The notes beneath the pieces are model-generated. The model did no database searches. It saw only the letters and a program-made list of their open reading frames with translations, and was not told where the DNA came from. Shown in pieces: positions 6,861 through 64,000 of a stretch of 64,000 bases of DNA (positions within the stretch are counted from its first letter, which is position 1; every line of letters begins with the position of its first letter). This stretch comes from Escherichia coli (GTDB taxonomy: Bacteria; Pseudomonadota; Gammaproteobacteria; Enterobacterales; Enterobacteriaceae): NCBI RefSeq assembly GCF_030013595.1, contig NZ_CP122768.1; one strand, written 5' to 3'. The position numbers were made by a program, and so were the translations under genes.

Positions 6861-7355
6861 TTATCGCGTAAGACGTAATTTGATATTTTTAATCGGACTA
6901 ATTCCCTGTTTACGTCGTTCGGCTTGAATTAATTTAGATAACTGACGTTCATAATCAGTCTTCAATTGCTGGAGAACACCCAATGACTCATAGGCGAAAG
7001 TATTCCCTTTCACGGTCATTTGAGATAATGCGGCTTCGTCCCCAGATAGCCTGGCGAAAATAACTTGCTCGATTACAGAAATCGTTTCGCGCAGATGTTC
7101 TTTTTTGGATTGTTTGGCGAATACTGGCAAAACAGTTAATTCCTGCATTGATACCAGTTCTTCATCAAGAGTAATAACAATGGTCATCTTCCCTTCTGGA
7201 AAGTCTAACGTTTTAATCTCGTGATTTTCCGGTGCATCATCGACCTGATAGACAATGCCTTTGCTATTACCTACCTGAATTGTTACACCCTCTTCATTCG
7301 CAAGCGTGACTTTTTCGCCTTTACGAATTACTAAGGGAATTAGTTCTAAACTCAT
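6861..7355 (-). CDS. Hypothetical head protein, 164 aa (occupies the gpW-like position between terL and portal)
   Basis: ORF track; AAGGGG SD; tightly spaced with neighbours. Confidence 0.35.
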   Translation of the reverse strand: MSLELIPLVIRKGEKVTLANEEGVTIQVGNSKGIVYQVDDAPENHEIKTLDFPEGKMTIVITLDEELVSMQELTVLPVFAKQSKKEHLRETISVIEQVIFARLSGDEAALSQMTVKGNTFAYESLGVLQQLKTDYERQLSKLIQAERRKQGISPIKNIKLRLTR

Positions 7356-7427
7356 AATTACCCCTTATTTAATTGTTATTGGATTAACAATATTTAGGAG
7401 TAAGCCGCCCCGAAGGACGGCGAGTTA

Positions 7428-9332
7428 TTAGAACGATGTTACCCAGCTACGGCCTCTATTTGGGCGTCTGACGATGTTTTGACGTTGTGGTCGTGTGATT
7501 GGCTTAGTTTCTTCGATTTGCTCGTCAGATTGCGATTTAGGAGCTTCTACAGGTTCTTCTGGTTCACGGTTCAAACTATCTTTGATGGCTTCGAGTTTTT
7601 CCCATGACATTTTATTGAGTACATGACGAGAAGCAGCATAGGAATAAGCCAGGCAGTCCAACGCTTCGTTTCGTGTTTGTCCAACTTTTACCCAACGTGT
7701 GGTATTACCCTGCCGTTTCAACTGTTCAGAAAGCAATTGCTCGCAATAGTCATCAGGAACGTCACCAATCTGGAAGACAGTGTGAGGATCGCCATCTCTC
7801 AAGTTCCGGTTAATCATTTCACGGATCATCGTTTTAAGGTTGTTTACGCCCAGAATTTTAAGGGTAAAACCACCCGTTCTTGTGTCTTTTACCGGAAGGA
7901 TTGGTGCATCAACATTGCTTGCGCCTTTAATGGCGGTTAGATTTTGCCACCGACTACAGAATCGATAGATCACGTTTGTAGCTCGTCCGTTCGATGAGTC
8001 CACGAAAGCAGATAACATCGGGATTCGTTCACCGGATCGGGTATAGAATTTAGCTTTCAGGAAGTTGTAAAGCTGGTTATATGCTGGTGATTCGTGGCGT
8101 TCGCAGTTCACATCATAGAATGATCGGTGATCAACTACGCATAGCCCTTTACGAGAAATACCCAGCAAGGTAGATTCCAGACGGTCTTTTTGCTGGTCAA
8201 CTCCACCTACCAGAGCCAGTACATCATCAGGAATATTGTCTAGGCTAATATCAGTTTTCAGCGTTTCTAATTCGTCGGCTGTGCGGTCTTCGTTAAGATC
8301 ATCGAAGGTTTCACCGAGGACTGTATTGTAGAACGTTGCCAGGGACATATTCGCGTAGCTATCAGCAAAGTCCACCACACACGCACGGATAGAACTAAAC
8401 GGAGACATAAGGCGGTTAGCATGAAAACCGATTACTTCCGCGTTTGGTTCGGTGGCGACCCATTCTCCCTGTCCAACAGCACGTAGGCGATCACCCTCGG
8501 TCCAATCGGTTTCACATTCAGGGCAACGGTAAACGGCTGTATCTGGGTTGGGTAATGATTTACCGTTAATCGTATGCCAATCGAAATGTACGTTACTCCA
8601 TTCCATTACGTGCTTGTGTCCGCAATGCTGGCAAACGACATGATATTTTCTCTTATCCGAGAGTTCCCATTGTTGGTTAATCGCCCCATCACGAGCGGTT
8701 GGAGTGGAAGCAATTACGATCCTTGCATCTTCCCCGAAAGTGGTTGCGCGTTGTTCCGCTAGTTGGATCGGGTTCCCTTCGTCTGACTCATCAGCCGCAT
8801 CAACTTCATCAAGAATAATCAAAGGGAGTGTTTTACCGCGAAGATGTGACGGACTATTCAACGACATGAAATACATAAACGATCCGTTACGAAGCTGAAT
8901 AATCGATGAGTTGTTAACGGCATTGCGATCTGATTTGTCGGTGATCATCGCCTTTAATTCTGGTGTTGCCTCTAATACTGGCTTCACCTTACCAGCGATC
9001 CAAGAATTTAGTTCTCTAACGTTACTTTGCAACACCCCAATATTAGTAGGGTTACTCGCGATCCGATGGAAGATAATTCCGTTAAGAATCATGGTCTTAC
9101 CCAACTGTGCCGAACATTTAAACACAATTTTTCTACGGTCTTCGGTGATCGCGTCCATCATTCCACGTTGGAAGGGATGCAATTTAATTAGCGATCCGGC
9201 TTTAACACCATCGGTTGCAACTACATTAGCCTCTACCCATTCGCTAGGTTTCATCGTTTTAGGTGGGCGAATTGCCGCAGAGATATTTTTAAGAATCTTT
9301 TTTAATTTTGCCTTGTTCGAAATCAGTTTCAT
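7428..9332 (-). CDS. Terminase large subunit, lambda GpA family, 634 aa
   Basis: ORF track; recalled lambda gpA similarity: ..HPFQRGMMDAI.. near N-terminus, Walker-A-like KCSAQLGKT, C-terminal RNEALDCLAYSYAA matching gpA RNEALDCFVYALAA. Confidence 0.85.
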   Translation of the reverse strand: MKLISNKAKLKKILKNISAAIRPPKTMKPSEWVEANVVATDGVKAGSLIKLHPFQRGMMDAITEDRRKIVFKCSAQLGKTMILNGIIFHRIASNPTNIGVLQSNVRELNSWIAGKVKPVLEATPELKAMITDKSDRNAVNNSSIIQLRNGSFMYFMSLNSPSHLRGKTLPLIILDEVDAADESDEGNPIQLAEQRATTFGEDARIVIASTPTARDGAINQQWELSDKRKYHVVCQHCGHKHVMEWSNVHFDWHTINGKSLPNPDTAVYRCPECETDWTEGDRLRAVGQGEWVATEPNAEVIGFHANRLMSPFSSIRACVVDFADSYANMSLATFYNTVLGETFDDLNEDRTADELETLKTDISLDNIPDDVLALVGGVDQQKDRLESTLLGISRKGLCVVDHRSFYDVNCERHESPAYNQLYNFLKAKFYTRSGERIPMLSAFVDSSNGRATNVIYRFCSRWQNLTAIKGASNVDAPILPVKDTRTGGFTLKILGVNNLKTMIREMINRNLRDGDPHTVFQIGDVPDDYCEQLLSEQLKRQGNTTRWVKVGQTRNEALDCLAYSYAASRHVLNKMSWEKLEAIKDSLNREPEEPVEAPKSQSDEQIEETKPITRPQRQNIVRRPNRGRSWVTSF

Positions 9333-12743: not shown

Positions 12744-12931
12744 CGGGGGCAAATTTCAGGGGCAAAAATTAGATTTTCAGGGGCAAAAATAGTGGGTTTC
12801 AGGGGCAAAAATGAGGGGCAAAATCACTGTTTCCCAGAATTTCAGGGGCAAAAATAGTGGGTTTCAGGGGCAAAAATGGGATGTGGAATCTAGGGGATTT
12901 TGGTTCAGGGGCAAAATTCAGGGGCAATTTT
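12744..12931 (+). repeat. Iteron array: 9 copies of (TTCA)GGGGCAAAAAT, including an exact 38-bp duplication
   Basis: Read directly; copies at ~12746, 12759, 12780, 12802, 12815, 12845, 12867, 12908, 12921; 38-mer TTCAGGGGCAAAAATAGTGGGTTTCAGGGGCAAAAATG at 12777 and 12841. Confidence 0.85.
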
Positions 12932-12968: not shown

Positions 12969-13025
12969 TTGACACTGTGTAGGATCGGTGGTATACTTGA
13001 AAATTCGAGATAAATATGTTATAAT
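12969..13025 (+). promoter_or_regulatory. Tandem near-consensus sigma70 promoters next to the iterons
   Basis: P1 TTGACA (12969-12974), 17 bp, TATACT (12992-12997); P2 TTGAAA (12997-13002), 17 bp, TGtTATAAT (13017-13025). Confidence 0.55.
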
Positions 13026-16394: not shown

Positions 16395-16724
16395 TTATTG
16401 GGGTTTACAACATTTAGGTTTGCCAATTCGTCTGGCTAACTCTTGCTGAGTGATTTCTGACTGTAAAAAAGCATTTAACAGCAATACCTTAGAGGCGACA
16501 CTCAAAGGCACTTCAATAAAGTGATCGTGACTATTTAATGGCGAAGGTAACGGGATAAGCTCGTTATCTTCAAAATAAAAATCAAATGCGGTCAGTAAAG
16601 CATCTTTTGCCGCTTCCATCGCTTCAGCAACTGTTTCGCCCTGGGTCAACGCTTCAGGGATATCCACAAAAGAAACCATATAACCGCCTTCCGGCGCGGG
16701 TGTAAGAGTGACGGGATAACGCAT
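16395..16724 (-). CDS. hicB: HicB antitoxin, C-terminally truncated at the element junction
   Basis: Matches recalled K-12 HicB from MRYPVTLTPAPEGGYMV.. through ..ARRIGKPK, then 5 non-native codons (CCKPQ) and a stop; C-terminal DNA-binding domain missing. Confidence 0.7.
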   Translation of the reverse strand: MRYPVTLTPAPEGGYMVSFVDIPEALTQGETVAEAMEAAKDALLTAFDFYFEDNELIPLPSPLNSHDHFIEVPLSVASKVLLLNAFLQSEITQQELARRIGKPKCCKPQ

Positions 16725-16769
16725 AATTTCGACTGTCTCTCGCATGTCATTAACCTTTTTAATTGGCGA

Positions 16770-20151: not shown

Positions 20152-21324
20152 ATGCGTCTGTTTTCTATTCCTCCACCCACGCTACTGGCGGGGTTTCTGG
20201 CGGTATTAATTGGCTACGCCAGTTCAGCGGCAATAATCTGGCAAGCAGCGATTGTCGCCGGAGCCACCACTGCACAAATCTCTGGCTGGATGACGGCGCT
20301 GGGGCTGGCAATGGGCGTCAGTACGCTGACTCTGACATTATGGTATCGCGTACCTGTTCTCACCGCATGGTCAACGCCTGGCGCGGCTTTGTTGGTCACC
20401 GGATTACAGGGACTAACACTTAACGAAGCCATCGGCGTTTTTATTGTCACCAACGCGTTAATAGTCCTCTGCGGCATAACGGGACTCTTTGCTCGTCTGA
20501 TGCGCATTATTCCGCACTCGCTTGCGGCGGCAATGCTTGCCGGGATTTTATTACGCTTTGGTTTACAGGCGTTTGCCAGTCTGGATGGTCAATCTACGTT
20601 GTGTGGAAGTATGTTGCTGGTATGGCTGGCAACCAAGGCCGTTGCGCCGCGCTATGCGGTAATTGCCGCGATGATTATTGGGGTCGTGATCGTTATCGCG
20701 CAAGGTGACGTTGTCACAACTGATGTTGTCTTTAAACCCGTTCTCCCCACTTATATTAGCCCTGATTTTTCGTTTGCTCACAGCCTGAGCGTTGCACTCC
20801 CCCTTTTTCTGGTGACGATGGCATCGCAAAACGCACCGGGTATCGCAGCAATGAAAGCCGCCGGATATTCAGCTCCTGTTTCGCCATTAATTGTATTTAC
20901 TGGATTGCTGGCACTGGTTTTTTCCCCTTTCGGCGTTTATTCCGTCGGTATTGCGGCAATCACCGCGGCTATTTGCCAAAGCCCGGAAGCGCATCCGGAT
21001 AAAGATCAACGTTGGCTGGCAGCTGCCGTTGCCGGCATTTTCTATTTGCTCGCAGGTTTGTTTGGTAGTGCCATTACCGGGATGATGGCTGCCCTGCCCG
21101 TAAGTTGGATCCAGATGCTGGCAGGTCTGGCGCTGTTAAGTACCATTGGCGGCAGTTTGTATCAGGCGCTGCATAATGAGCGTGAGCGAGACGCGGCGGT
21201 GGTGGCATTTCTGGTAACGGCAAGTGGATTGACGCTGGTCGGGATTGGTTCTGCGTTCTGGGGATTAATTGCCGGAGGCGTTTGTTACGTGGTGTTGAAT
21301 TTAATCGCTCACAGAAACCGATAA
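20152..21324 (+). CDS. ydcO: BenE-family inner-membrane transporter, 390 aa
   Basis: ATG at 20152 (MRLFSIPPP..) inside tracked ORF 20029..21324; polytopic membrane protein. Confidence 0.7.
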   Translation: MRLFSIPPPTLLAGFLAVLIGYASSAAIIWQAAIVAGATTAQISGWMTALGLAMGVSTLTLTLWYRVPVLTAWSTPGAALLVTGLQGLTLNEAIGVFIVTNALIVLCGITGLFARLMRIIPHSLAAAMLAGILLRFGLQAFASLDGQSTLCGSMLLVWLATKAVAPRYAVIAAMIIGVVIVIAQGDVVTTDVVFKPVLPTYISPDFSFAHSLSVALPLFLVTMASQNAPGIAAMKAAGYSAPVSPLIVFTGLLALVFSPFGVYSVGIAAITAAICQSPEAHPDKDQRWLAAAVAGIFYLLAGLFGSAITGMMAALPVSWIQMLAGLALLSTIGGSLYQALHNERERDAAVVAFLVTASGLTLVGIGSAFWGLIAGGVCYVVLNLIAHRNR

Positions 21325-56670: not shown

Positions 56671-59600
56671 ATGATTACTATTGACGGTAATGGCGCGGTT
56701 GCTTCGGTGGCGTTTCGCACCAGTGAAGTTATCGCCATCTACCCTATTACCCCCAGTTCCACAATGGCAGAACAGGCTGATGCCTGGGCCGGAAACGGCT
56801 TGAAGAACGTTTGGGGAGACACACCACGCGTGGTTGAAATGCAGTCGGAAGCGGGTGCTATCGCTACCGTGCATGGCGCTTTGCAGACGGGTGCCCTTTC
56901 AACATCGTTTACGTCATCGCAGGGTTTGCTGCTGATGATCCCGACGCTGTACAAACTGGCAGGCGAACTGACGCCATTTGTCCTGCATGTAGCGGCACGT
57001 ACCGTTGCCACACATGCACTCTCTATTTTTGGCGATCATTCCGACGTTATGGCGGTGCGCCAGACGGGTTGCGCGATGTTGTGTGCGGCTAACGTCCAGG
57101 AAGCGCAAGACTTTGCTCTCATTTCGCACATCGCAACGCTGAAGAGCCGCGTGCCATTTATTCATTTCTTTGATGGTTTCCGCACGTCCCACGAAATCAA
57201 TAAAATTGTCCCGCTGGCCGATGACACTATTCTTGATCTCATGCCGCAGGCCGAAATTGATGCTCATCGCGCCCGGGCGCTCAACCCGGAACATCCGGTG
57301 ATCCGCGGTACGTCCGCCAATCCTGACACTTATTTCCAGTCTCGCGAAGCCACCAACCCGTGGTACAACGCAGTTTACGACCATGTTGAACAGGCGATGA
57401 ATGATTTCGCTGCCGCGACAGGTCGTCAGTATCAGCCGTTTGAGTATTACGGGCATCCGCAAGCGGAACGGGTGATTATCCTGATGGACTCTGCCATTGG
57501 CACCTGTGAAGAAGTCGTTGATGAATTGCTAACCCGTGGCGAAAAAGTCGGCGTGCTGAAAGTTCGCCTGTACCGTCCCTTCTCCGCCAAACACTTGCTA
57601 CAAGCTCTGCCGGGATCCGTACGCAGCGTGGCGGTACTGGACAGAACCAAAGAACCCGGTGCCCAGGCTGAACCGCTCTATCTGGATGTGATGACCGCAC
57701 TGGCAGAAGCCTTTAATAATGGCGAGCGCGAAACCCTGCCCCGTGTCATTGGTGGGCGCTATGGTCTTTCATCCAAAGAATTTGGCCCGGACTGTGTACT
57801 GGCGGTATTTGCCGAGCTCAACGCGGCTAAACCGAAAGCGCGCTTTACGGTTGGTATTTACGATGATGTGACCAATCTGTCACTGCCGTTGCCGGAAAAC
57901 ACCCTGCCAAACTCGGCGAAACTTGAAGCCTTGTTTTATGGCCTTGGTAGTGATGGCAGCGTTTCCGCGACCAAAAACAATATCAAGATTATCGGTAATT
58001 CCACGCCGTGGTACGCACAGGGCTATTTTGTTTACGACTCCAAAAAGGCGGGCGGCCTGACGGTTTCTCACCTTCGCGTGAGCGAGCAGCCGATTCGTTC
58101 CGCTTATCTGATTTCCCAGGCTGATTTTGTTGGCTGCCACCAGTTGCAGTTTATTGATAAATATCAGATGGCTGAACGTTTAAAACCTGGCGGCATTTTC
58201 CTGCTCAACACACCGTACAGCGCAGATGAAGTATGGTCGCGCTTGCCGCAGGAAGTTCAGGCCGTGTTAAACCAGAAAAAGGCGCGCTTCTATGTGATTA
58301 ACGCGGCGAAAATCGCCCGCGAATGTGGCCTGGCGGCCCGTATTAATACCGTCATGCAGATGGCTTTTTTCCATCTGACGCAAATTCTGCCTGGCGATAG
58401 CGCCCTCGCAGAATTGCAGGGTGCGATTGCCAAAAGTTACAGTAGCAAAGGTCAGGATCTGGTGGAGCGCAACTGGCAGGCTCTGGCGCTGGCGCGTGAA
58501 TCCGTAGAAGAAGTTCCGTTGCAGCCGGTTAATCCGCACAGCGCCAATCGACCGCCTGTGGTTTCCGATGCCGCTCCTGATTTCGTGAAAACCGTTACCG
58601 CGGCGATGCTCGCCGGGCTTGGTGATGCCCTCCCCGTTTCGGCGCTGCCGCCAGACGGCACCTGGCCGATGGGCACCACGCGCTGGGAAAAACGCAATAT
58701 CGCCGAAGAGATCCCCATCTGGAAAGAGGAACTCTGTACCCAATGTAACCACTGCGTCGCCGCTTGCCCACACTCAGCTATTCGCGCAAAAGTGGTACCG
58801 CCTGAAGCGATGGAAAACGCCCCTGCCAGCCTGCATTCGCTGGATGTGAAATCGCGTGATATGCGCGGGCAGAAATATGTCTTGCAGGTGGCACCGGAAG
58901 ATTGCACCGGTTGTAACCTGTGCGTCGAAGTTTGCCCGGCGAAAGACCGTCAGAATCCAGAGATTAAAGCCATCAATATGATGTCGCGGCTGGAACATGT
59001 CGAAGAAGAGAAAATCAATTACGATTTCTTCCTCAACCTGCCAGAAATCGACCGTAGCAAACTGGAACGTATTGATATTCGTACATCGCAGCTGATTACA
59101 CCGCTGTTTGAATATTCCGGTGCTTGCTCCGGTTGTGGCGAGACGCCGTATATTAAATTGCTGACTCAGCTCTATGGCGACCGGATGTTGATCGCTAACG
59201 CCACCGGCTGTTCTTCAATTTATGGCGGTAACCTGCCCTCTACACCGTATACCACCGATACCAACGGTCGTGGACCGGCATGGGCGAACTCGCTGTTTGA
59301 AGATAACGCCGAATTTGGCCTTGGTTTCCGCCTGACGGTCGATCAACACCGTGTCCGCGTGCTGCGTCTGCTGGATCAATTTGCCGATAAAATCCCGGCG
59401 GAATTACTAACTGCGTTGAAATCAGACGCCAAGCCAGAGGTTCGTCGTGAACAGGTTGCAGCTTTACGCCAGCAACTCAACGATGTTGCCGAAGCACATG
59501 AACTGCTACGTGACGCAGATGCACTGGTAGAAAAATCAATCTGGCTGATTGGTGGCGACGGCTGGGCTTACGATATCGGCTTTGGCGGTCTGGATCATGT

Positions 59601-60195
59601 ATTGAGTTTGACCGAAAACGTCAACATTCTGGTGCTGGATACGCAATGCTATTCCAATACCGGTGGTCAGGCGTCGAAAGCGACACCGCTGGGTGCAGTA
59701 ACTAAGTTTGGCGAGCATGGCAAACGTAAAGCGCGTAAAGATCTTGGCGTCAGTATGATGATGTACGGTCATGTTTATGTGGCGCAGATTTCTCTCGGCG
59801 CGCAGCTCAACCAGACGGTGAAAGCGATTCAGGAAGCGGAAGCGTATCCGGGGCCATCGCTGATCATCGCTTATAGCCCGTGTGAAGAGCATGGTTACGA
59901 TCTGGCACTCAGCCACGATCAGATGCGCCAACTCACTGCCACCGGCTTCTGGCCGCTATATCGCTTCGATCCACGTCGAGCCGATGAAGGCAAACTGCCG
60001 CTGGCACTGGATTCACGCCCGCCGTCAGAAGCACTGGAAGAAACGTTACTTCATGAGCAACGTTTCCGTCGTCTGAATTCGCAGCAGCCAGAAGTGGCAG
60101 AACAGTTATGGAAAGATGCTGCAGCTGATTTGCAAAAACGCTATGACTTCCTGGCACAAATGGCCGGAAAAGCGGAAAAAAGCAACACCGATTAA
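56671..60195 (+). CDS. ydbK: Pyruvate:flavodoxin oxidoreductase, 1174 aa
   Basis: ORF track; two 4Fe-4S ferredoxin CxxCxxCxxxCP motifs and TPP-binding region. Confidence 0.9.
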   Translation: MITIDGNGAVASVAFRTSEVIAIYPITPSSTMAEQADAWAGNGLKNVWGDTPRVVEMQSEAGAIATVHGALQTGALSTSFTSSQGLLLMIPTLYKLAGELTPFVLHVAARTVATHALSIFGDHSDVMAVRQTGCAMLCAANVQEAQDFALISHIATLKSRVPFIHFFDGFRTSHEINKIVPLADDTILDLMPQAEIDAHRARALNPEHPVIRGTSANPDTYFQSREATNPWYNAVYDHVEQAMNDFAAATGRQYQPFEYYGHPQAERVIILMDSAIGTCEEVVDELLTRGEKVGVLKVRLYRPFSAKHLLQALPGSVRSVAVLDRTKEPGAQAEPLYLDVMTALAEAFNNGERETLPRVIGGRYGLSSKEFGPDCVLAVFAELNAAKPKARFTVGIYDDVTNLSLPLPENTLPNSAKLEALFYGLGSDGSVSATKNNIKIIGNSTPWYAQGYFVYDSKKAGGLTVSHLRVSEQPIRSAYLISQADFVGCHQLQFIDKYQMAERLKPGGIFLLNTPYSADEVWSRLPQEVQAVLNQKKARFYVINAAKIARECGLAARINTVMQMAFFHLTQILPGDSALAELQGAIAKSYSSKGQDLVERNWQALALARESVEEVPLQPVNPHSANRPPVVSDAAPDFVKTVTAAMLAGLGDALPVSALPPDGTWPMGTTRWEKRNIAEEIPIWKEELCTQCNHCVAACPHSAIRAKVVPPEAMENAPASLHSLDVKSRDMRGQKYVLQVAPEDCTGCNLCVEVCPAKDRQNPEIKAINMMSRLEHVEEEKINYDFFLNLPEIDRSKLERIDIRTSQLITPLFEYSGACSGCGETPYIKLLTQLYGDRMLIANATGCSSIYGGNLPSTPYTTDTNGRGPAWANSLFEDNAEFGLGFRLTVDQHRVRVLRLLDQFADKIPAELLTALKSDAKPEVRREQVAALRQQLNDVAEAHELLRDADALVEKSIWLIGGDGWAYDIGFGGLDHVLSLTENVNILVLDTQCYSNTGGQASKATPLGAVTKFGEHGKRKARKDLGVSMMMYGHVYVAQISLGAQLNQTVKAIQEAEAYPGPSLIIAYSPCEEHGYDLALSHDQMRQLTATGFWPLYRFDPRRADEGKLPLALDSRPPSEALEETLLHEQRFRRLNSQQPEVAEQLWKDAAADLQKRYDFLAQMAGKAEKSNTD

Positions 60196-60223
60196 ATGCT
60201 CTGGATAAGAATTATCCAATTCT

Positions 60224-60328
60224 AAAAAAAAGCCCGAACGACTGTTCGGGCTTGTCTCATTATTTGTTGGATAAACAGTAACAAGGGTCCAACAGAAAAT
60301 AATCTTTGTGACAATAAAGGCATATAAC
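60224..60328 (-). ncRNA. micC: MicC small RNA
   Basis: Minus-sense GTTATATGCCTTTATTGTCACA.. 5' end and hairpin plus U-tract terminator; between ydbK and ompN as in K-12. Confidence 0.7.
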
Positions 60329-60555
60329 CCGCGAAGAATAACGTATAGCAAATTAAAAGTATAATTTTTATTTTGTATGTATTATCTTCGATACATTCAC
60401 CAGACTTATTATCATTTCAGAAGAATTATTTGATTAAGGTTTTACTTAAGGCGTAACAAATGATATTTATCGGCTAACTGAACTTCTCCTTTAGGATGTT
60501 TTCACTCCCCGAAATGGGGATAAAAGGCAAATAAAATAACTAAAGGATTTATTCA

Positions 60556-61689
60556 ATGAAAAGCAAAGTACTGGCACTTTTAATTCCTGCCCTGCTCGCC
60601 GCAGGTGCTGCACATGCAGCCGAAGTTTATAATAAAGACGGCAACAAATTAGATCTGTATGGCAAAGTTGATGGCCTGCATTATTTTTCTGATAATTCAG
60701 CGAAAGATGGTGACCAGAGCTATGCGCGTCTGGGTTTTAAAGGCGAAACCCAAATTAACGATCAACTCACTGGCTACGGTCAATGGGAATACAATATTCA
60801 GGCAAACAACACTGAATCCTCAAAAAACCAGTCATGGACCCGTCTGGCATTTGCCGGATTGAAATTTGCAGATTACGGTTCTTTCGATTACGGACGTAAT
60901 TATGGCGTAATGTACGACATCGAAGGCTGGACCGATATGCTGCCTGAATTTGGCGGTGACTCTTATACCAATGCAGACAACTTTATGACTGGTCGTGCCA
61001 ATGGCGTCGCGACTTATCGTAATACTGATTTCTTCGGTCTGGTAAATGGTCTGAACTTCGCGGTGCAGTATCAAGGTAACAACGAAGGTGCCAGTAATGG
61101 TCAGGAAGGCACCAACAACGGACGTGATGTTCGCCATGAAAACGGTGACGGCTGGGGTCTTTCCACAACATATGATTTAGGCATGGGCTTTAGCGCTGGT
61201 GCGGCATACACCTCTTCTGACCGCACCAATGACCAGGTTAACCATACTGCGGCGGGTGGTGATAAAGCAGACGCGTGGACTGCTGGGCTAAAATACGATG
61301 CTAACAATATTTACCTGGCAACCATGTATTCAGAAACGCGTAATATGACCCCGTTTGGCGACAGCGATTATGCTGTTGCTAACAAAACCCAGAACTTTGA
61401 AGTTACTGCACAGTACCAGTTTGATTTTGGTCTGCGTCCGGCAGTCTCTTTCCTGATGTCTAAAGGCCGTGACCTGCACGCTGCCGGTGGTGCAGACAAC
61501 CCGGCAGGTGTTGATGATAAAGATCTGGTTAAATACGCCGATGTTGGCGCGACTTACTATTTCAACAAAAATATGTCCACCTACGTTGACTATAAAATCA
61601 ACCTGTTGGATGAAGATGACAGCTTCTACGCTGCCAACGGCATCTCTACCGATGATATTGTCGCTTTAGGTCTGGTTTATCAGTTCTAA
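60556..61689 (+). CDS. ompN: Outer-membrane porin OmpN, 377 aa
   Basis: ORF track; signal peptide; C-terminal ..GLVYQF. Confidence 0.85.
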
Positions 61690-61697
61690 ATCCTCCT

Positions 61698-61721
61698 GCC
61701 CGCTGTTATGGCGGGCTTTTT
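61698..61721 (+). terminator. ompN terminator
   Basis: GCCCGCTGTTATGGCGGGCTTTTT. Confidence 0.6.
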
Positions 61722-61748
61722 CTGCTTATTCTTCCTCCTTTGATCTAA

Positions 61749-62264
<516 letters not shown>

Positions 62265-62270
62265 CACTAA

Positions 62271-62296
62271 CGCCCGCACATTGCTGCGGGCTTTTT
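62271..62296 (+). terminator. uspF terminator
   Basis: CGCCCGCACATTGCTGCGGGCTTTTT. Confidence 0.6.
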
Positions 62297-62487
62297 GATT
62301 CATTTCGCAAATGTGCTGACATTTTCCCCTCTAATCCGTACCATACACGCCACAGTTTTTATATCAGATTTCTTATGCTGGGCGTTCCGGCATGACGCAT
62401 ACTCTTCTGATGCCATATAACGAATTGAGTCGCTTTTAAATGTCGCAAAATCAAGAAATTAGTAAGAAAGAACAATACAACCTGAAC

Positions 62488-62643
62488 AAGTAAGGGCAAA
62501 AATCACAACTATCTGACGCATAATAATTTTATTTATTTTTCAATACGTTAAGCAACATCAACAACTACAATAAGCTACGATAACCCACTCTTTTTTTGCC
62601 CCATTTTTGCCCCTTTTGCGGCTTTTTGCCCCATTTTTGCCAC
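62488..62643. repeat. Second GGGGCAAAAA(T) motif cluster (one forward copy, four to five inverted copies)
   Basis: TAAGGGCAAAAATCAC at ~62491; TTTTTTTGCCCCATTTTTGCCCC..TTTTTGCCCCATTTTTGCCAC at 62592-62643; same core as the 12744-12931 iterons. Confidence 0.7.
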
Positions 62644-62803
62644 TAAAAAAATCCTAAAACACCCAATCCGTGAACTGCAATTGGCACCCATGAATACTTT
62701 CCAATAGAATCTGTATCGGCTGGAAATCATTCAATACTCGCACTATCGAAAGTTATCCAGCCAGCCGCGGTACGTTCTTGCATACGACGTGCCGCGGCTT
62801 CTG

Positions 62804-63370
62804 TTATTCCACTACAAAATTCCTAACCGACCTCAAATCCTCCAGACTGCTCAGTTCCTCTTTCATCTCCCGCTGACGCCGATAAATCTCATCGTTGCGA
62901 TCGACCTGTGCCTGCACCATTGCAGTAAGCAGCTCATCCAGTTTCTGCATCGACAGTTTCACCTGTTGATTATCGGCATCACCCCACGCAAGGGTGGTTC
63001 GTGCCGTATCGGATTTCGCCGCCATTACTACCGGATAAAGACGGGCCATTGAGTCGGGGCCAGCATTCCAGGTACGACCGTTCCATTCGAACGTGAACGG
63101 CTGCGCTTCCTGTTCTGCACGCCAGGCGTTGATTTCCTGGCGTTTAGCGGCTTTTGCCGCTGCGATAAGTTCCGGCGTGACGGTGAACGGGGCGATTTCG
63201 CCCCATTTGCCGCTTTGTAACTCTTCCCAGATACGCTGACCTGTTGTTGCCGTGTCTTCTGGTGTGGCGGTGTACGGAACGGGGGCTTCCATACCCTCAA
63301 ACAGAACATCGCAGTCAATCGCACCGGATTCGGTATAACGGGGACTGGTAATCTCTTTTATCTGCATCAT
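62804..63370 (-). CDS. Tail fibre assembly (chaperone) protein, 188 aa
   Basis: ORF track; directly downstream of and overlapping a tail-fibre ORF. Confidence 0.55.
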   Translation of the reverse strand: MMQIKEITSPRYTESGAIDCDVLFEGMEAPVPYTATPEDTATTGQRIWEELQSGKWGEIAPFTVTPELIAAAKAAKRQEINAWRAEQEAQPFTFEWNGRTWNAGPDSMARLYPVVMAAKSDTARTTLAWGDADNQQVKLSMQKLDELLTAMVQAQVDRNDEIYRRQREMKEELSSLEDLRSVRNFVVE

Positions 63371-64000
63371 GCAATCCTCACAAACAAAGAAACTAAGCCC
63401 CGGTTATAAAACTTAACATCCGGGCCGCCAGATAAAGCGACATATGTACCAGGCAGGGTACCCCCGTAGACAAATGACCTCGCAGCAGCACTAAATCCTG
63501 ACGTGCGATACTCCGCTTCAAAGACCACCTGCCGGAGTCTTGAGCCTGACACGCCTTGTGCACGAAGTAACGTAACCTCACTGCTGCCATCGTCCGGTAG
63601 GTATGCAGCAAGAACCAGGCCTCCGGGGAACGGAGGACGCTTTGATGTATTTTCTGTTGCATACAACAGTTGCATCAGGCTATTACGTGACCAGAACAAC
63701 CGCGACCATGCTTTTGGTAGGTCTGGCGGACGCATGGATTTTTTAACCAGTACCTGATATTTCGCAGGACCTTCACCGAATCCCCCATCGTATTCTGCAT
63801 CACCATGAAACGTTATCCACCGACGCGCTTCTGCTTCAATACCGGCAGAGTCAATTCCGTATCGTATGTCTATATCCACAAGTCCACGGAAATAAGGTTG
63901 CCCCATGTCATACGCAATGATGGGGTTATACGAAGTGTTAGTCCCTCCATATTGTGTTACCGCGTAACGCCCGGGGGTGACTTCGAACACCCATTTCAGA
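63367..64000 (-). CDS. Tail fibre protein, C-terminal part (5' end beyond window)
   Basis: Tracked ORF 63367..63990 begins at a GTG 10 nt from the window edge and the frame stays open to position 64000. Confidence 0.5.
   Translation of the reverse strand, partial: LKWVFEVTPGRYAVTQYGGTNTSYNPIIAYDMGQPYFRGLVDIDIRYGIDSAGIEAEARRWITFHGDAEYDGGFGEGPAKYQVLVKKSMRPPDLPKAWSRLFWSRNSLMQLLYATENTSKRPPFPGGLVLAAYLPDDGSSEVTLLRAQGVSGSRLRQVVFEAEYRTSGFSAAARSFVYGGTLPGTYVALSGGPDVKFYNRGLVSLFVRIA

Follow-up and report, generated by a model that had tools for sequence, protein, structure and literature searches.

What prophage end lies beside the host gene uspF in this Escherichia coli chromosome, and why are the genes that occupy that position in K-12 missing from it? 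In K-12, the Rac prophage approaches uspF in the order stfR-tfaR-pinR-ynaE-ynaM-attR-ttcC-uspF. The window analyzed here is one 64,000-nt stretch of E. coli DNA, and the prophage end occupies positions 62265 to 64000. An initial annotation had reported that the pin and cold-shock genes are absent, and their absence was confirmed, as tblastn searches with K-12 StfR, TfaR, PinR, YnaE, and YnaM gave no match at an E value of 1e-3 or lower in the 64-kb window. A serine invertase gene next to the fiber genes was likewise lacking: neither the window nor the 49-kb locus of the relative P13-6 contains a PinR homologue. The counterpart of ynaE in other genomes is annotated as cold shock protein YdfK. 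The reported distance of roughly 540 bp to the next gene was also accurate: the gap after uspF is 539 nt long (62265 to 62803) and is followed by a minus-strand gene at 62804 to 63370. The gap had been described as holding only repeats, and repeats are indeed present at 62591 to 62644, but it also contains a terminator, a ttcC remnant with an att core, an attachment arm, and two hairpins. The host junction has the following features.

61830 to 62264, plus strand: uspF, the prophage-flanking host gene (open reading frame; Pfam Usp, E 3.6e-31; annotated uspF in a 99.9%-identical genome)
62272 to 62291, plus strand: intrinsic terminator of uspF, a GC-rich hairpin followed by TTTTT (terminator scan; identical in K-12)
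62440 to 62493, plus strand: ttcC-like remnant, the native ttcA 5′ end, 17 codons and a TAA, in the attR core region
62449 to 62461, plus strand: match to the IHF consensus WATCAANNNNTTA within the ttcC remnant, read from the sequence
62464 to 62489, unstranded: 26-nt Rac att core AAGAAAGAACAATACAACCTGAACAA, an exact match to the site in Rac-SA53 (KU052037)

The ttcC remnant begins 175 nt after uspF, and 51 nt of it (62440 to 62490) are identical to K-12 ttcC (b4638). Integration of the prophage displaced the original start of ttcA and thereby yielded the remnant. Rac has been placed between ttcA and ttcC (Liu et al. 2015; PMC4632033), and an IHF consensus has been reported at the ttcC locus of Rac attR, without an IHF peak there (PMC8407004). 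The 26-nt core is labeled "attB" in KU052037 and lies at the uspF end of Rac-SA53. An Rfam scan of positions 60000 to 64000 put MicC alone above its threshold; a weak CssrB-like match at 62766 to 62821, whose 28 bits fell short of the cut-off (76), was dismissed. Inward of the core is an attachment arm of approximately 170 nt with the following layout.

62494 to 62503, minus strand: lone copy of the arm motif in inverted orientation, GGGCAAAAAT, adjoining the core (inverted-repeat pairs I5 to I9)
62504 to 62590, unstranded: arm spacer from core to repeats, common to other Rac-type prophages and the less conserved part of the arm
62591 to 62644, plus strand: five direct copies, (T)TTTTGCCCC / TTTTGCGGC / TTTTTGCCAC, at a spacing of 9 to 11 nt (repeat family D1)
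62645 to 62660, unstranded: last bases in common with K-12 Rac, the mosaic boundary of the arm (BLASTN)

By BLASTN, homology to K-12 (97.6%) starts in host DNA at ydbK, runs through ttcC and the repeats, and ends at 62660. The two prophages therefore have the host junction, the ttcC remnant, the att core, the arm, and the five repeats in common and differ in everything inward of 62660; K-12 Rac has a Caudo_TAP helper gene, an invertase gene, and ynaE, and the window has none of the three. Presence of the same five repeats in K-12 Rac indicates that they are not peculiar to this strain. In megablast comparisons, homology to ATCC 8739 and O157 stops within 10 to 20 nt of the outermost repeat. 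Across five Rac-type arms, invariant columns make up 83% of the repeat block, 63% of the spacer (62492 to 62590), and 18% of the DNA distal to the block. The inverted copy at 62494 to 62503 also occurs in K-12, ATCC 8739, and Rac-SA53, and the O157 arm is substituted at this point. All Rac-type prophages retain this arm.

The window ends at position 64000, and what lies beyond, including intR and xisR at the far end and a Rac-type early region, was observed only in relatives, namely, the near-identical P13-6 and also Rac-SA53. In P13-6, which is 99.9% identical, a prophage of approximately 48 kb extends from this end to xisR-intR-ttcA and carries intR, xisR, recET, kilR, and racR. A survey of 5426 complete E. 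coli genomes found the same 1736 nt in 36 of them. Several features that mark a Rac prophage are found here, namely, the position between uspF and ttcA, the ttcC remnant, the 26-nt core, and an arm homologous to that of K-12. We conclude that a Rac-family prophage with P27-type fiber cargo has very probably inserted in the 5′ end of ttcA and that positions 62265 to 64000 are its attR end, with a DUF4376 chaperone and IntR sites as putative components. Read inward from uspF, this end consists of the terminator, the ttcC remnant with its core, the arm, and then lineage-specific cargo. The arrangement is already known from public genomes and from the described phage Rac-SA53, and it is ordinary mosaicism.

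The cargo is the last two genes of the late operon, a tail-fiber gene and a translationally coupled gene for a DUF4376 protein, and it is followed by a pair of hairpins.

63367 to 64000, minus strand: 3′ part of the tail-fiber gene, last 210 codons, with the frame open to the window edge
62804 to 63370, minus strand: DUF4376 gene, 188 aa, probable tail-fiber chaperone (Pfam PF14301, E 4e-17)
62718 to 62799, unstranded: two adjacent hairpins directly 3′ of the DUF4376 gene (inverted repeats I1 and I2)

The 210 fiber residues are 100% identical to residues 455 to 664 of the 664-aa P13-6 fiber, 99% identical to L56 of the Stx2e phage phiP27, and 93.8% identical to tail3 of Rac-SA53. The full-length P13-6 fiber, which matches PHROG 2636, contains Phage_fiber_2 and PF08400 (E 9e-62) domains; its similarity to StfR is confined to the N-terminal domain, PF08400, at 41% identity, and to a single short repeat. 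Pfam returned no match in the 210 window residues, where the StfR-like distal domains (Gp34_trimer, Collar, and Phage_fiber) were not encountered, and those residues gave no significant alignment to the C-terminal half of StfR. A PDB search with the full fiber matched only the N-terminal and repeat parts of other fibers. The 188-aa protein scores 63 bits against PF14301 over residues 71 to 175 (cut-off, 25 bits) and matches PHROG 1141 with an E value of 1.4e-88. It is 100% identical to its P13-6 counterpart, 84.6% identical to phiP27 L57, and 85.6% identical to Rac-SA53 tail4. Its ATG overlaps the TGA of the fiber gene in an ATGA at 63367 to 63370, and the order of fiber gene and then DUF4376 gene is repeated in five related loci.

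One way in which a fiber cassette could come to lie next to uspF is if a K-12-like Rac end lost pinR, ynaE, and ynaM by local deletion and a TfaR/StfR-type pair was thereby brought up to the host gene. Consistent with such a deletion, the first approximately 395 nt after uspF are K-12-like, and the fiber belongs to a family whose N-terminal domain is common with StfR. The two proteins are not TfaR and StfR orthologues, however. The helper is unrelated to TfaR, as the initial annotation had suspected: BLASTP gave an E value of 5.5, and the two belong to different Pfam families, with TfaR matching PF02413 (Caudo_TAP) at an E value of 2.7e-43 and the 188-aa PF14301 protein giving no PF02413 match. 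The fiber tip is likewise unrelated to StfR. Moreover, the same cassette stands at the end of free phages as well as of full-length prophages (Rac-SA53, phiP27, and vB_Apl-pPE4), and the K-12 pinR-ynaE-ynaM block is itself a mosaic piece, being approximately 99% identical, from 190 nt inside attR, to pinQ-ydfK-ynfT loci in other genomes (Qin gene names), so K-12 does not offer an ancestral state for comparison. The TfaR BLASTP, the StfR comparison, and tblastn together effectively refute local deletion as the source of the missing pin and cold-shock genes, and we regard it as highly improbable. We conclude that tfaR, pinR, ynaE, and ynaM are absent because the lineage carries a different late module.

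The suggestion of a different lambdoid fiber module at the Rac position is correct in that the DUF4376 gene and the fiber tip differ from those of K-12, but "lambdoid" applies to the N-terminal domain of the fiber only, because the module of the relative encodes a contractile tail. In P13-6, the module that the fiber and helper pair ends encodes a contractile tail rather than a lambda-like one and includes sheath and baseplate wedge genes. Rac-SA53, a full-sized Rac-like prophage with LT-IIa (Jobling 2016, as cited in PMC5917428; GenBank KU052037; described here from that record and the author's 2018 letter), has a structural module of the P13-6 type. It occupies the same site between ttcA and uspF, with the same core at the uspF end and the same order at the right end (fiber gene tail3, DUF4376 gene tail4, att, and uspF), and its nucleotide identity over 62675 to 64000 is 92.5%. 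It differs in that its fiber is 1061 aa long, compared with 664 aa in P13-6, and in that it carries LT-IIa and pertussis-like toxin genes, whereas P13-6 has no annotated toxin cargo. In phiP27 (AJ298298), the L56/L57 pair likewise lies at the extreme right end by attR, after an earlier fiber and Caudo_TAP pair; unlike the present locus, phiP27 has its own annotated 11-nt attR, an extra small open reading frame (L58), a fiber of 490 aa, and no cluster of the arm repeat TTTGCCCC at its right end. The fiber and DUF4376 cassette also occurs in vB_Apl-pPE4 and ETEC1716. The hairpins at 62718 to 62799 are kept in Rac-SA53, phiP27, and vB_Apl-pPE4 and survive in relic form in many Stx phages; the hairpin block moves together with the cassette. 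A classical intrinsic terminator was rejected for these hairpins, which have no T-run and drew no call in the terminator scan.

Fiber chaperones of the DUF4376 family, encoded 3′ of fiber genes, have been described in the Alteromonas phages V22 and A5 as well as in the CJIE1 prophage of Campylobacter. V22 gp27, A5 gp9, and the gene 3′ of the CJIE1 H-fiber gene belong to the same Pfam family and hold the same position after a fiber gene; the relationship is one of common family, and the partner fibers are unrelated. The 188-aa protein is most likely an intermolecular fiber chaperone, a role carried over from these distant relatives. As such, it would assist trimerization of the C-terminal fiber tip and may cap the tip transiently. 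Alternatively, the protein could be a structural component of the distal fiber, an adhesin or tip subunit that remains on the virion and touches the receptor. The name "tail fiber protein" is given to it both by PHROG 1141 and in the Rac-SA53 record, Pseudomonas phages have "tail fiber component" proteins that its first 60 residues resemble, and the Alteromonas study proposed that such proteins can remain on the fiber as a transient cap. Active V22 fibers need the V22 DUF4376 protein, however, and the CJIE1 H-fiber requires coexpression of the downstream DUF4376 gene. In addition, the AlphaFold model of the 188-aa protein (pLDDT, 96.7) is helical with beta-hairpins and prefoldin-like, unlike a receptor-binding knob. 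We consider a structural role unlikely.

The fold matches of the 188-aa protein in BFVD were phage DUF4376 proteins, and a PDB sequence search found nothing meaningful, the best E value being 0.41. The A5 and V22 proteins were reported to have a fold like that of intramolecular chaperone domains (T5, 4UW8; K1F, 3GW6); here, the best matches among solved structures are prefoldins. On the basis of the model, DUF4376 fiber chaperones may have a prefoldin-like architecture. E. coli W encodes a 79%-identical DUF4376 protein alongside a strongly diverged fiber tip, and the pairing of DUF4376 protein and fiber is therefore not strictly tip specific. For annotation, the gene adjacent to attR is better called a DUF4376-type fiber chaperone than a "tail fiber protein" or TfaR.

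The arm itself carries the motif TTTGCCCC, of which the window has 12 copies where 2.56 would be expected; 0 of 100 shuffles reached 12. The block at 62591 to 62644 is also the strongest array of T-tracts phased at 10 to 11 nt in the window and is predicted to be intrinsically curved. Two further copies, in the same orientation, lie directly after the intR stop codon at attL in K-12, P13-6, and Rac-SA53, although these three attL sequences are nearly identical to one another and amount to roughly one observation. No TTTGCCCC cluster was found in phiP27, vB_Apl-pPE4, or ETEC1716, which have the same fiber cassette with other integration modules; in vB_Apl-pPE4, a different motif, ATTTCGGGG (shorter copy, ATTTCGGG), flanks that phage's own attP region on both sides. 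IntR of P13-6 matches PF12167 (Arm-DNA-bind_2) with an E value of 2e-26, a match made with the relative's protein. Going by sequence and position, IntR most likely uses the five phased copies as arm-type binding sites. The N-terminal arm-binding domain of IntR would bind the five repeats and the two copies beside intR, and repeats on both arms together with the curvature of the phased T-tracts would help to loop the arm back to the core when the prophage integrates or excises.

The proposed layout resembles lambda attP, whose arm-type sites (P1, P2, and P′1 to P′3) are bound by the N-terminal domain of Int, in having short direct repeats on both arms and an integrase with an N-terminal arm-binding domain. 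At approximately 100 to 155 nt, the distance of the distal cluster from the core is similar to that of P1 and P2 in lambda. The layout differs from lambda in its motif, in having five tightly packed copies at 9- to 11-nt spacing with phased T-tracts, and in the Pfam family of the arm-binding domain (PF12167).

The repeats could instead be a static bend only or sites for XisR, Fis, or a replication protein. Phased A/T tracts by themselves curve DNA, and no other T-tract array in the window is phased as strongly as this block. Moreover, a near-identical 11-mer occurs eight times at 12746 to 12915, in a different prophage and 3.5 kb from the end of that element, where an att arm is excluded, which leaves room for recognition of the motif by some factor besides IntR. 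Among open reading frames near this second cluster (9.4 to 16.9 kb), Pfam identified HicA and HicB only, and a match to Rha fell below the cut-off. Against these alternatives, both att arms carry copies in one orientation, the arm-binding domain of IntR requires such sites, and the cluster accompanies the intR/att module rather than the neighboring cargo, with homology between Rac lineages of unrelated cargo ending just beyond the last copy. In a published gel shift, XisR bound a probe with the repeats and the core but not a probe with the repeats alone (PMC4632033). We mapped both probes onto K-12 and found that the unshifted probe, AttM, contains all five copies; XisR was rejected as the repeat binder on this basis, and the result counts against XisR but names no other binder. 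A literature search found no published IntR footprint and yielded only this XisR gel shift. We regard a bend alone or another protein as possible but less likely and retain IntR as the favored binder.

A bolder reading, which is plausible but which we hold only tentatively, is that the five copies at 62591 to 62644 and the two beside intR are the unmapped arm-type sites of Rac and set the limit of its minimal attP, that the eight-copy 11-mer cluster reflects a shared DNA-binding specificity, and that DUF4376 chaperones may be prefoldin-like. If the minimal Rac attP ends outward at the last copy, this limit would explain why every Rac-type lineage changes cargo within approximately 20 to 40 nt of it. 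Similarly, the nearly identical 11-mer in the other prophage would point to a related arm- or iteron-binding protein or to a host factor.

The locus illustrates prophage mosaicism cleanly: interchangeable cargo is attached to a single integration module consisting of the ttcA core, the arm, intR, and xisR. That cargo is pinR, ynaE, and ynaM in K-12; sitABCD in ATCC 8739; DUF1076-family genes in O157, which from the family name we take to be NleG-like effector genes; and a fiber gene with a DUF4376 gene in this strain and E. coli W. K-12 Rac should not serve as the reference state. The value of the locus as a discovery is small, and its use lies in annotation and in a testable candidate for the sites of IntR: the conserved repeat block offers a concrete IntR arm-site candidate in a much-used model cryptic prophage.

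The segment at 62265-64000 is the attR end of a Rac-family prophage in ttcA, and its features and those of the adjoining host genes were as follows.

Features at the uspF-side prophage end (window positions; strand where applicable)
56671-60195, plus strand: ydbK (ORF and profile calls)
60216-60331, minus strand: MicC small RNA (Rfam, 107.8 bits; gathering score, 90)
60556-61689, plus strand: ompN
61830-62264, plus strand: uspF
62272-62291: uspF terminator (terminator scan)
62440-62490 (plus TAA): ttcA remnant of 17 codons, identical to K-12 ttcC
62449-62461: IHF-consensus match within the ttcA remnant
62464-62489: 26-nt att core, identical to the annotated uspF-end site of phage Rac-SA53
62494-62503: single inverted motif copy
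62504-62590: spacer from the inverted copy to the repeat block
62591-62644: five direct copies of TTTTTGCCCC or near variants, spaced 9-11 nt
62718-62799: two hairpins
62804-63370, minus strand: 188-codon ORF (DUF4376 gene), converging on uspF
63367 to window edge, minus strand: open frame of the fibre gene, converging on uspF

The fibre-gene stop and the start of the 188-codon ORF overlap in ATGA. The gap from uspF to that ORF measured 539 nt (62265-62803), in agreement with the ~540 bp given in the initial annotation, which was right to place repeats there but not to make them the sole content, as the terminator, ttcA remnant, att core, and hairpins lie there too. MicC sits between ydbK and ompN, its position in K-12.

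MG1655 has the gene order stfR, tfaR, pinR, ynaE, ynaM, the Rac end, ttcC, uspF, ompN, micC, and ydbK. BLASTN of window 60000-64000 against this region returned a single alignment (97.6%) that starts in the host genes, takes in ttcC, and ends at 62660, 171 nt inside the annotated Rac boundary, and inward of that point just a weak 41-nt K-12 match. StfR, TfaR, PinR, YnaE, and YnaM gave no tblastn match in the whole window, and the pin and cold-shock genes that had been called missing are therefore truly absent. Despite their absence, the outermost ~170 nt of the prophage arm is, judged by alignment, Rac. Moreover, from 190 nt inside attR the K-12 pinR-ynaE-ynaM block (7085-8769 of the K-12 Rac end, L002) is ~99% identical to pinQ-ydfK-ynfT loci (the gene names used for Qin) in many other genomes, and thus the K-12 Rac right end is itself mosaic or recombinant. 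The Rac-specific part of the K-12 right end is confined to its outer 189 nt. The K-12-type junction from uspF to ynaM was found in 844 genomes.

The 188-aa protein scored 63 bits on PF14301 (DUF4376), where the cut-off is 25, and also matched PHROG 1141. Neither profile search nor BLASTP detected similarity to TfaR, a Caudo_TAP protein, which bears out the earlier description of the assembly protein as not obviously TfaR-like. Identity was 100% to the homologue in P13-6 (an O141:H4 E. coli strain), 85.6% to Rac-SA53 tail4, 84.6% to L57 of the Stx2e phage phiP27, and 79% to its counterpart in E. coli W. A 63-sequence alignment was drawn from 1.84 billion cluster representatives (346 hits at E ≤ 1e-3). 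The predicted structure (pLDDT, 96.7) comprised an N-terminal beta domain (residues 1-60) followed by a helix, beta-hairpin, helix, beta-hairpin, and long helix (66-175); Foldseek with this model found no solved homologue, and its BFVD matches were other phage DUF4376 proteins. In Alteromonas phage V22, fibres are active only with the DUF4376 protein encoded downstream of the fibre gene, and the Campylobacter CJIE1 H-fibre likewise needs its own; the Alteromonas study also proposed that such proteins are transient fibre-tip caps. We infer that the 188-aa protein is probably a fibre chaperone.

Residues 1-62 of the protein (62807-63370, minus strand) were 38-40% identical to the starts of Pseudomonas aeruginosa phage proteins annotated "tail fiber component" in many records (e.g., E79 and PaP1_EPu-2019), which suggests that the N-terminal beta domain may be separately mobile. 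More than 150 Stx1/Stx2 phage records carry at their right end an unannotated ~240-nt relic, 82.7% identical to 62705-62953. This relic takes in the final ~40 codons of a DUF4376 gene together with the hairpin block behind it, and appears to be a vestige of the fibre/DUF4376 cassette.

The 210 fibre residues within the window matched the C terminus of the 664-aa P13-6 fibre at 100% identity; for the other fibres, tip identity was 99% (phiP27 L56), 98.6% (an ETEC1716 fibre), and 93.8% (Rac-SA53 tail3). One and the same tip is therefore carried by fibres of 431, 490, 664, and 1061 aa. Between the full-length P13-6 fibre and StfR, similarity is limited to the N-terminal PF08400 domain (41% identity) and a single short repeat. 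In the long fibres of Rac-SA53 (L008 900-4085) and E. coli W (L011 4575-7715), a module with the signature DIYDRT.G.LA.PG.FG.G ... PGRY occurs three times, and the tip domain of the window is its last copy. The short fibres appear to have lost the internal copies, and the repetition is reminiscent of the knob duplication reported in Alteromonas A5-type fibres.

The repeat block is also present in K-12. TTTGCCCC occurred 12 times in the window against 2.56 expected, a count reached in 0 of 100 shuffles, and 5 of 8 copies in the 49-kb P13-6 prophage locus lay within ~160 nt of an att core. On the attL side, two copies in the same orientation, 11 nt apart, directly follow the intR stop codon in K-12, P13-6, and Rac-SA53. 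When five Rac-type arms (window, K-12, O157, ATCC 8739, and Rac-SA53) were aligned, invariant columns made up 83% of the repeat block, 63% of the spacer, and 18% beyond the block, and homology between lineages with unrelated cargo ended no more than a few tens of nt from the final repeat copy. As a control, we took phages in which the same fibre/DUF4376 cassette comes with a different integration module (phiP27, vB_Apl-pPE4, and an ETEC1716 prophage near sufA), and none had a TTTGCCCC cluster. In vB_Apl-pPE4 the attP region is flanked on each side by a motif of its own, ATTTCGGGG, one copy of which is the shorter ATTTCGGG.

The block is also the strongest 10-11-nt-phased T-tract array in the 64 kb, and intrinsic curvature is therefore expected. 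The repeats could possibly be a bend only, or else the target of another binding factor. In published XisR gel shifts, both probes of which we placed on the K-12 sequence, a probe with the repeats, core, and host flank was bound, and one with all five repeats that ended at the core edge was not (PMC4632033). The IntR N terminus is an Arm-DNA-bind_2 domain (E, 2e-26). On balance we lean toward the repeats being candidate IntR arm-type sites within a curved arm.

The window's other prophage has a second cluster, within ~2 kb that lack long ORFs: eight TTTGCCCC copies on the minus strand (12746-12915), mostly TTTCAGGGGCAAAAAT units 21-22 nt apart, with the 11-mer ATTTTTGCCCC in common with the Rac arm repeats. 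This cluster lies just upstream of a promoter-like TTGACA-17-TATACT (~12971-12999, read by eye), is kept in strain MEI003 (L005 14111-14280), and resembles iterons or operators. The window's first prophage or island ends inside hicB (16395-16745, junction 16412/16413); homology to K-12 begins at 16413, with 105 nt left to the stop of K-12 hicB, and hicB is thus truncated, being annotated in MEI003 as a partial pseudogene. At 21323/21324 the window is without the IS609 copy (insQ) that MG1655 has between ydcL and ydcO, the two K-12 alignments abutting exactly at the IS ends.

Of 5426 complete E. coli genomes, 36 contained the full 1736 nt, with the best match (99.9%) in P13-6; many of these 36 were porcine ETEC or STEC isolates. 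The fibre-tip/DUF4376 cassette was present in 57 genomes, and 166 had a homologue of the DUF4376 gene. The P13-6 prophage (~48 kb) runs from the uspF-side end to xisR-intR-ttcA, with a Rac-type early region (recET, kilR, sieB, racR, ydaS, and ydaT) and a late module whose genes include those for a tail sheath and a baseplate wedge protein as well as two pairs of fibre and helper. The layout of the window recurs in E. coli W, where the fibre tip has diverged. The same Rac arm is followed immediately on its inner side by three DUF1076-family genes in O157:H7 (L009 3081-5081), presumably NleG-like effector genes, and by sitABCD in ATCC 8739 (L010 3086-5379). These loci mark the site just inside attR as a cargo hot spot. 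In vB_Apl-pPE4 (L013, PP818812.1), a phage reported from Actinobacillus pleuropneumoniae, an E. coli-type fibre/DUF4376 cassette (91.5% nucleotide identity) adjoins an unrelated integrase; either the cassette moves between genera of pig-associated bacteria or the assigned host is worth checking.

We conclude that, with these refinements, a different or recombined tail-fibre module occupies the Rac position, as initially proposed. The arrangement is already known: it is the same in Rac-SA53 (GenBank KU052037), which Jobling calls a full-sized Rac-like prophage (PMC5917428), and the phiP27 genome record (AJ298298) already includes the fibre pair. Only two points are mildly new, the putative arm sites of IntR and the prediction of a prefoldin-like shape for the DUF4376 domain.
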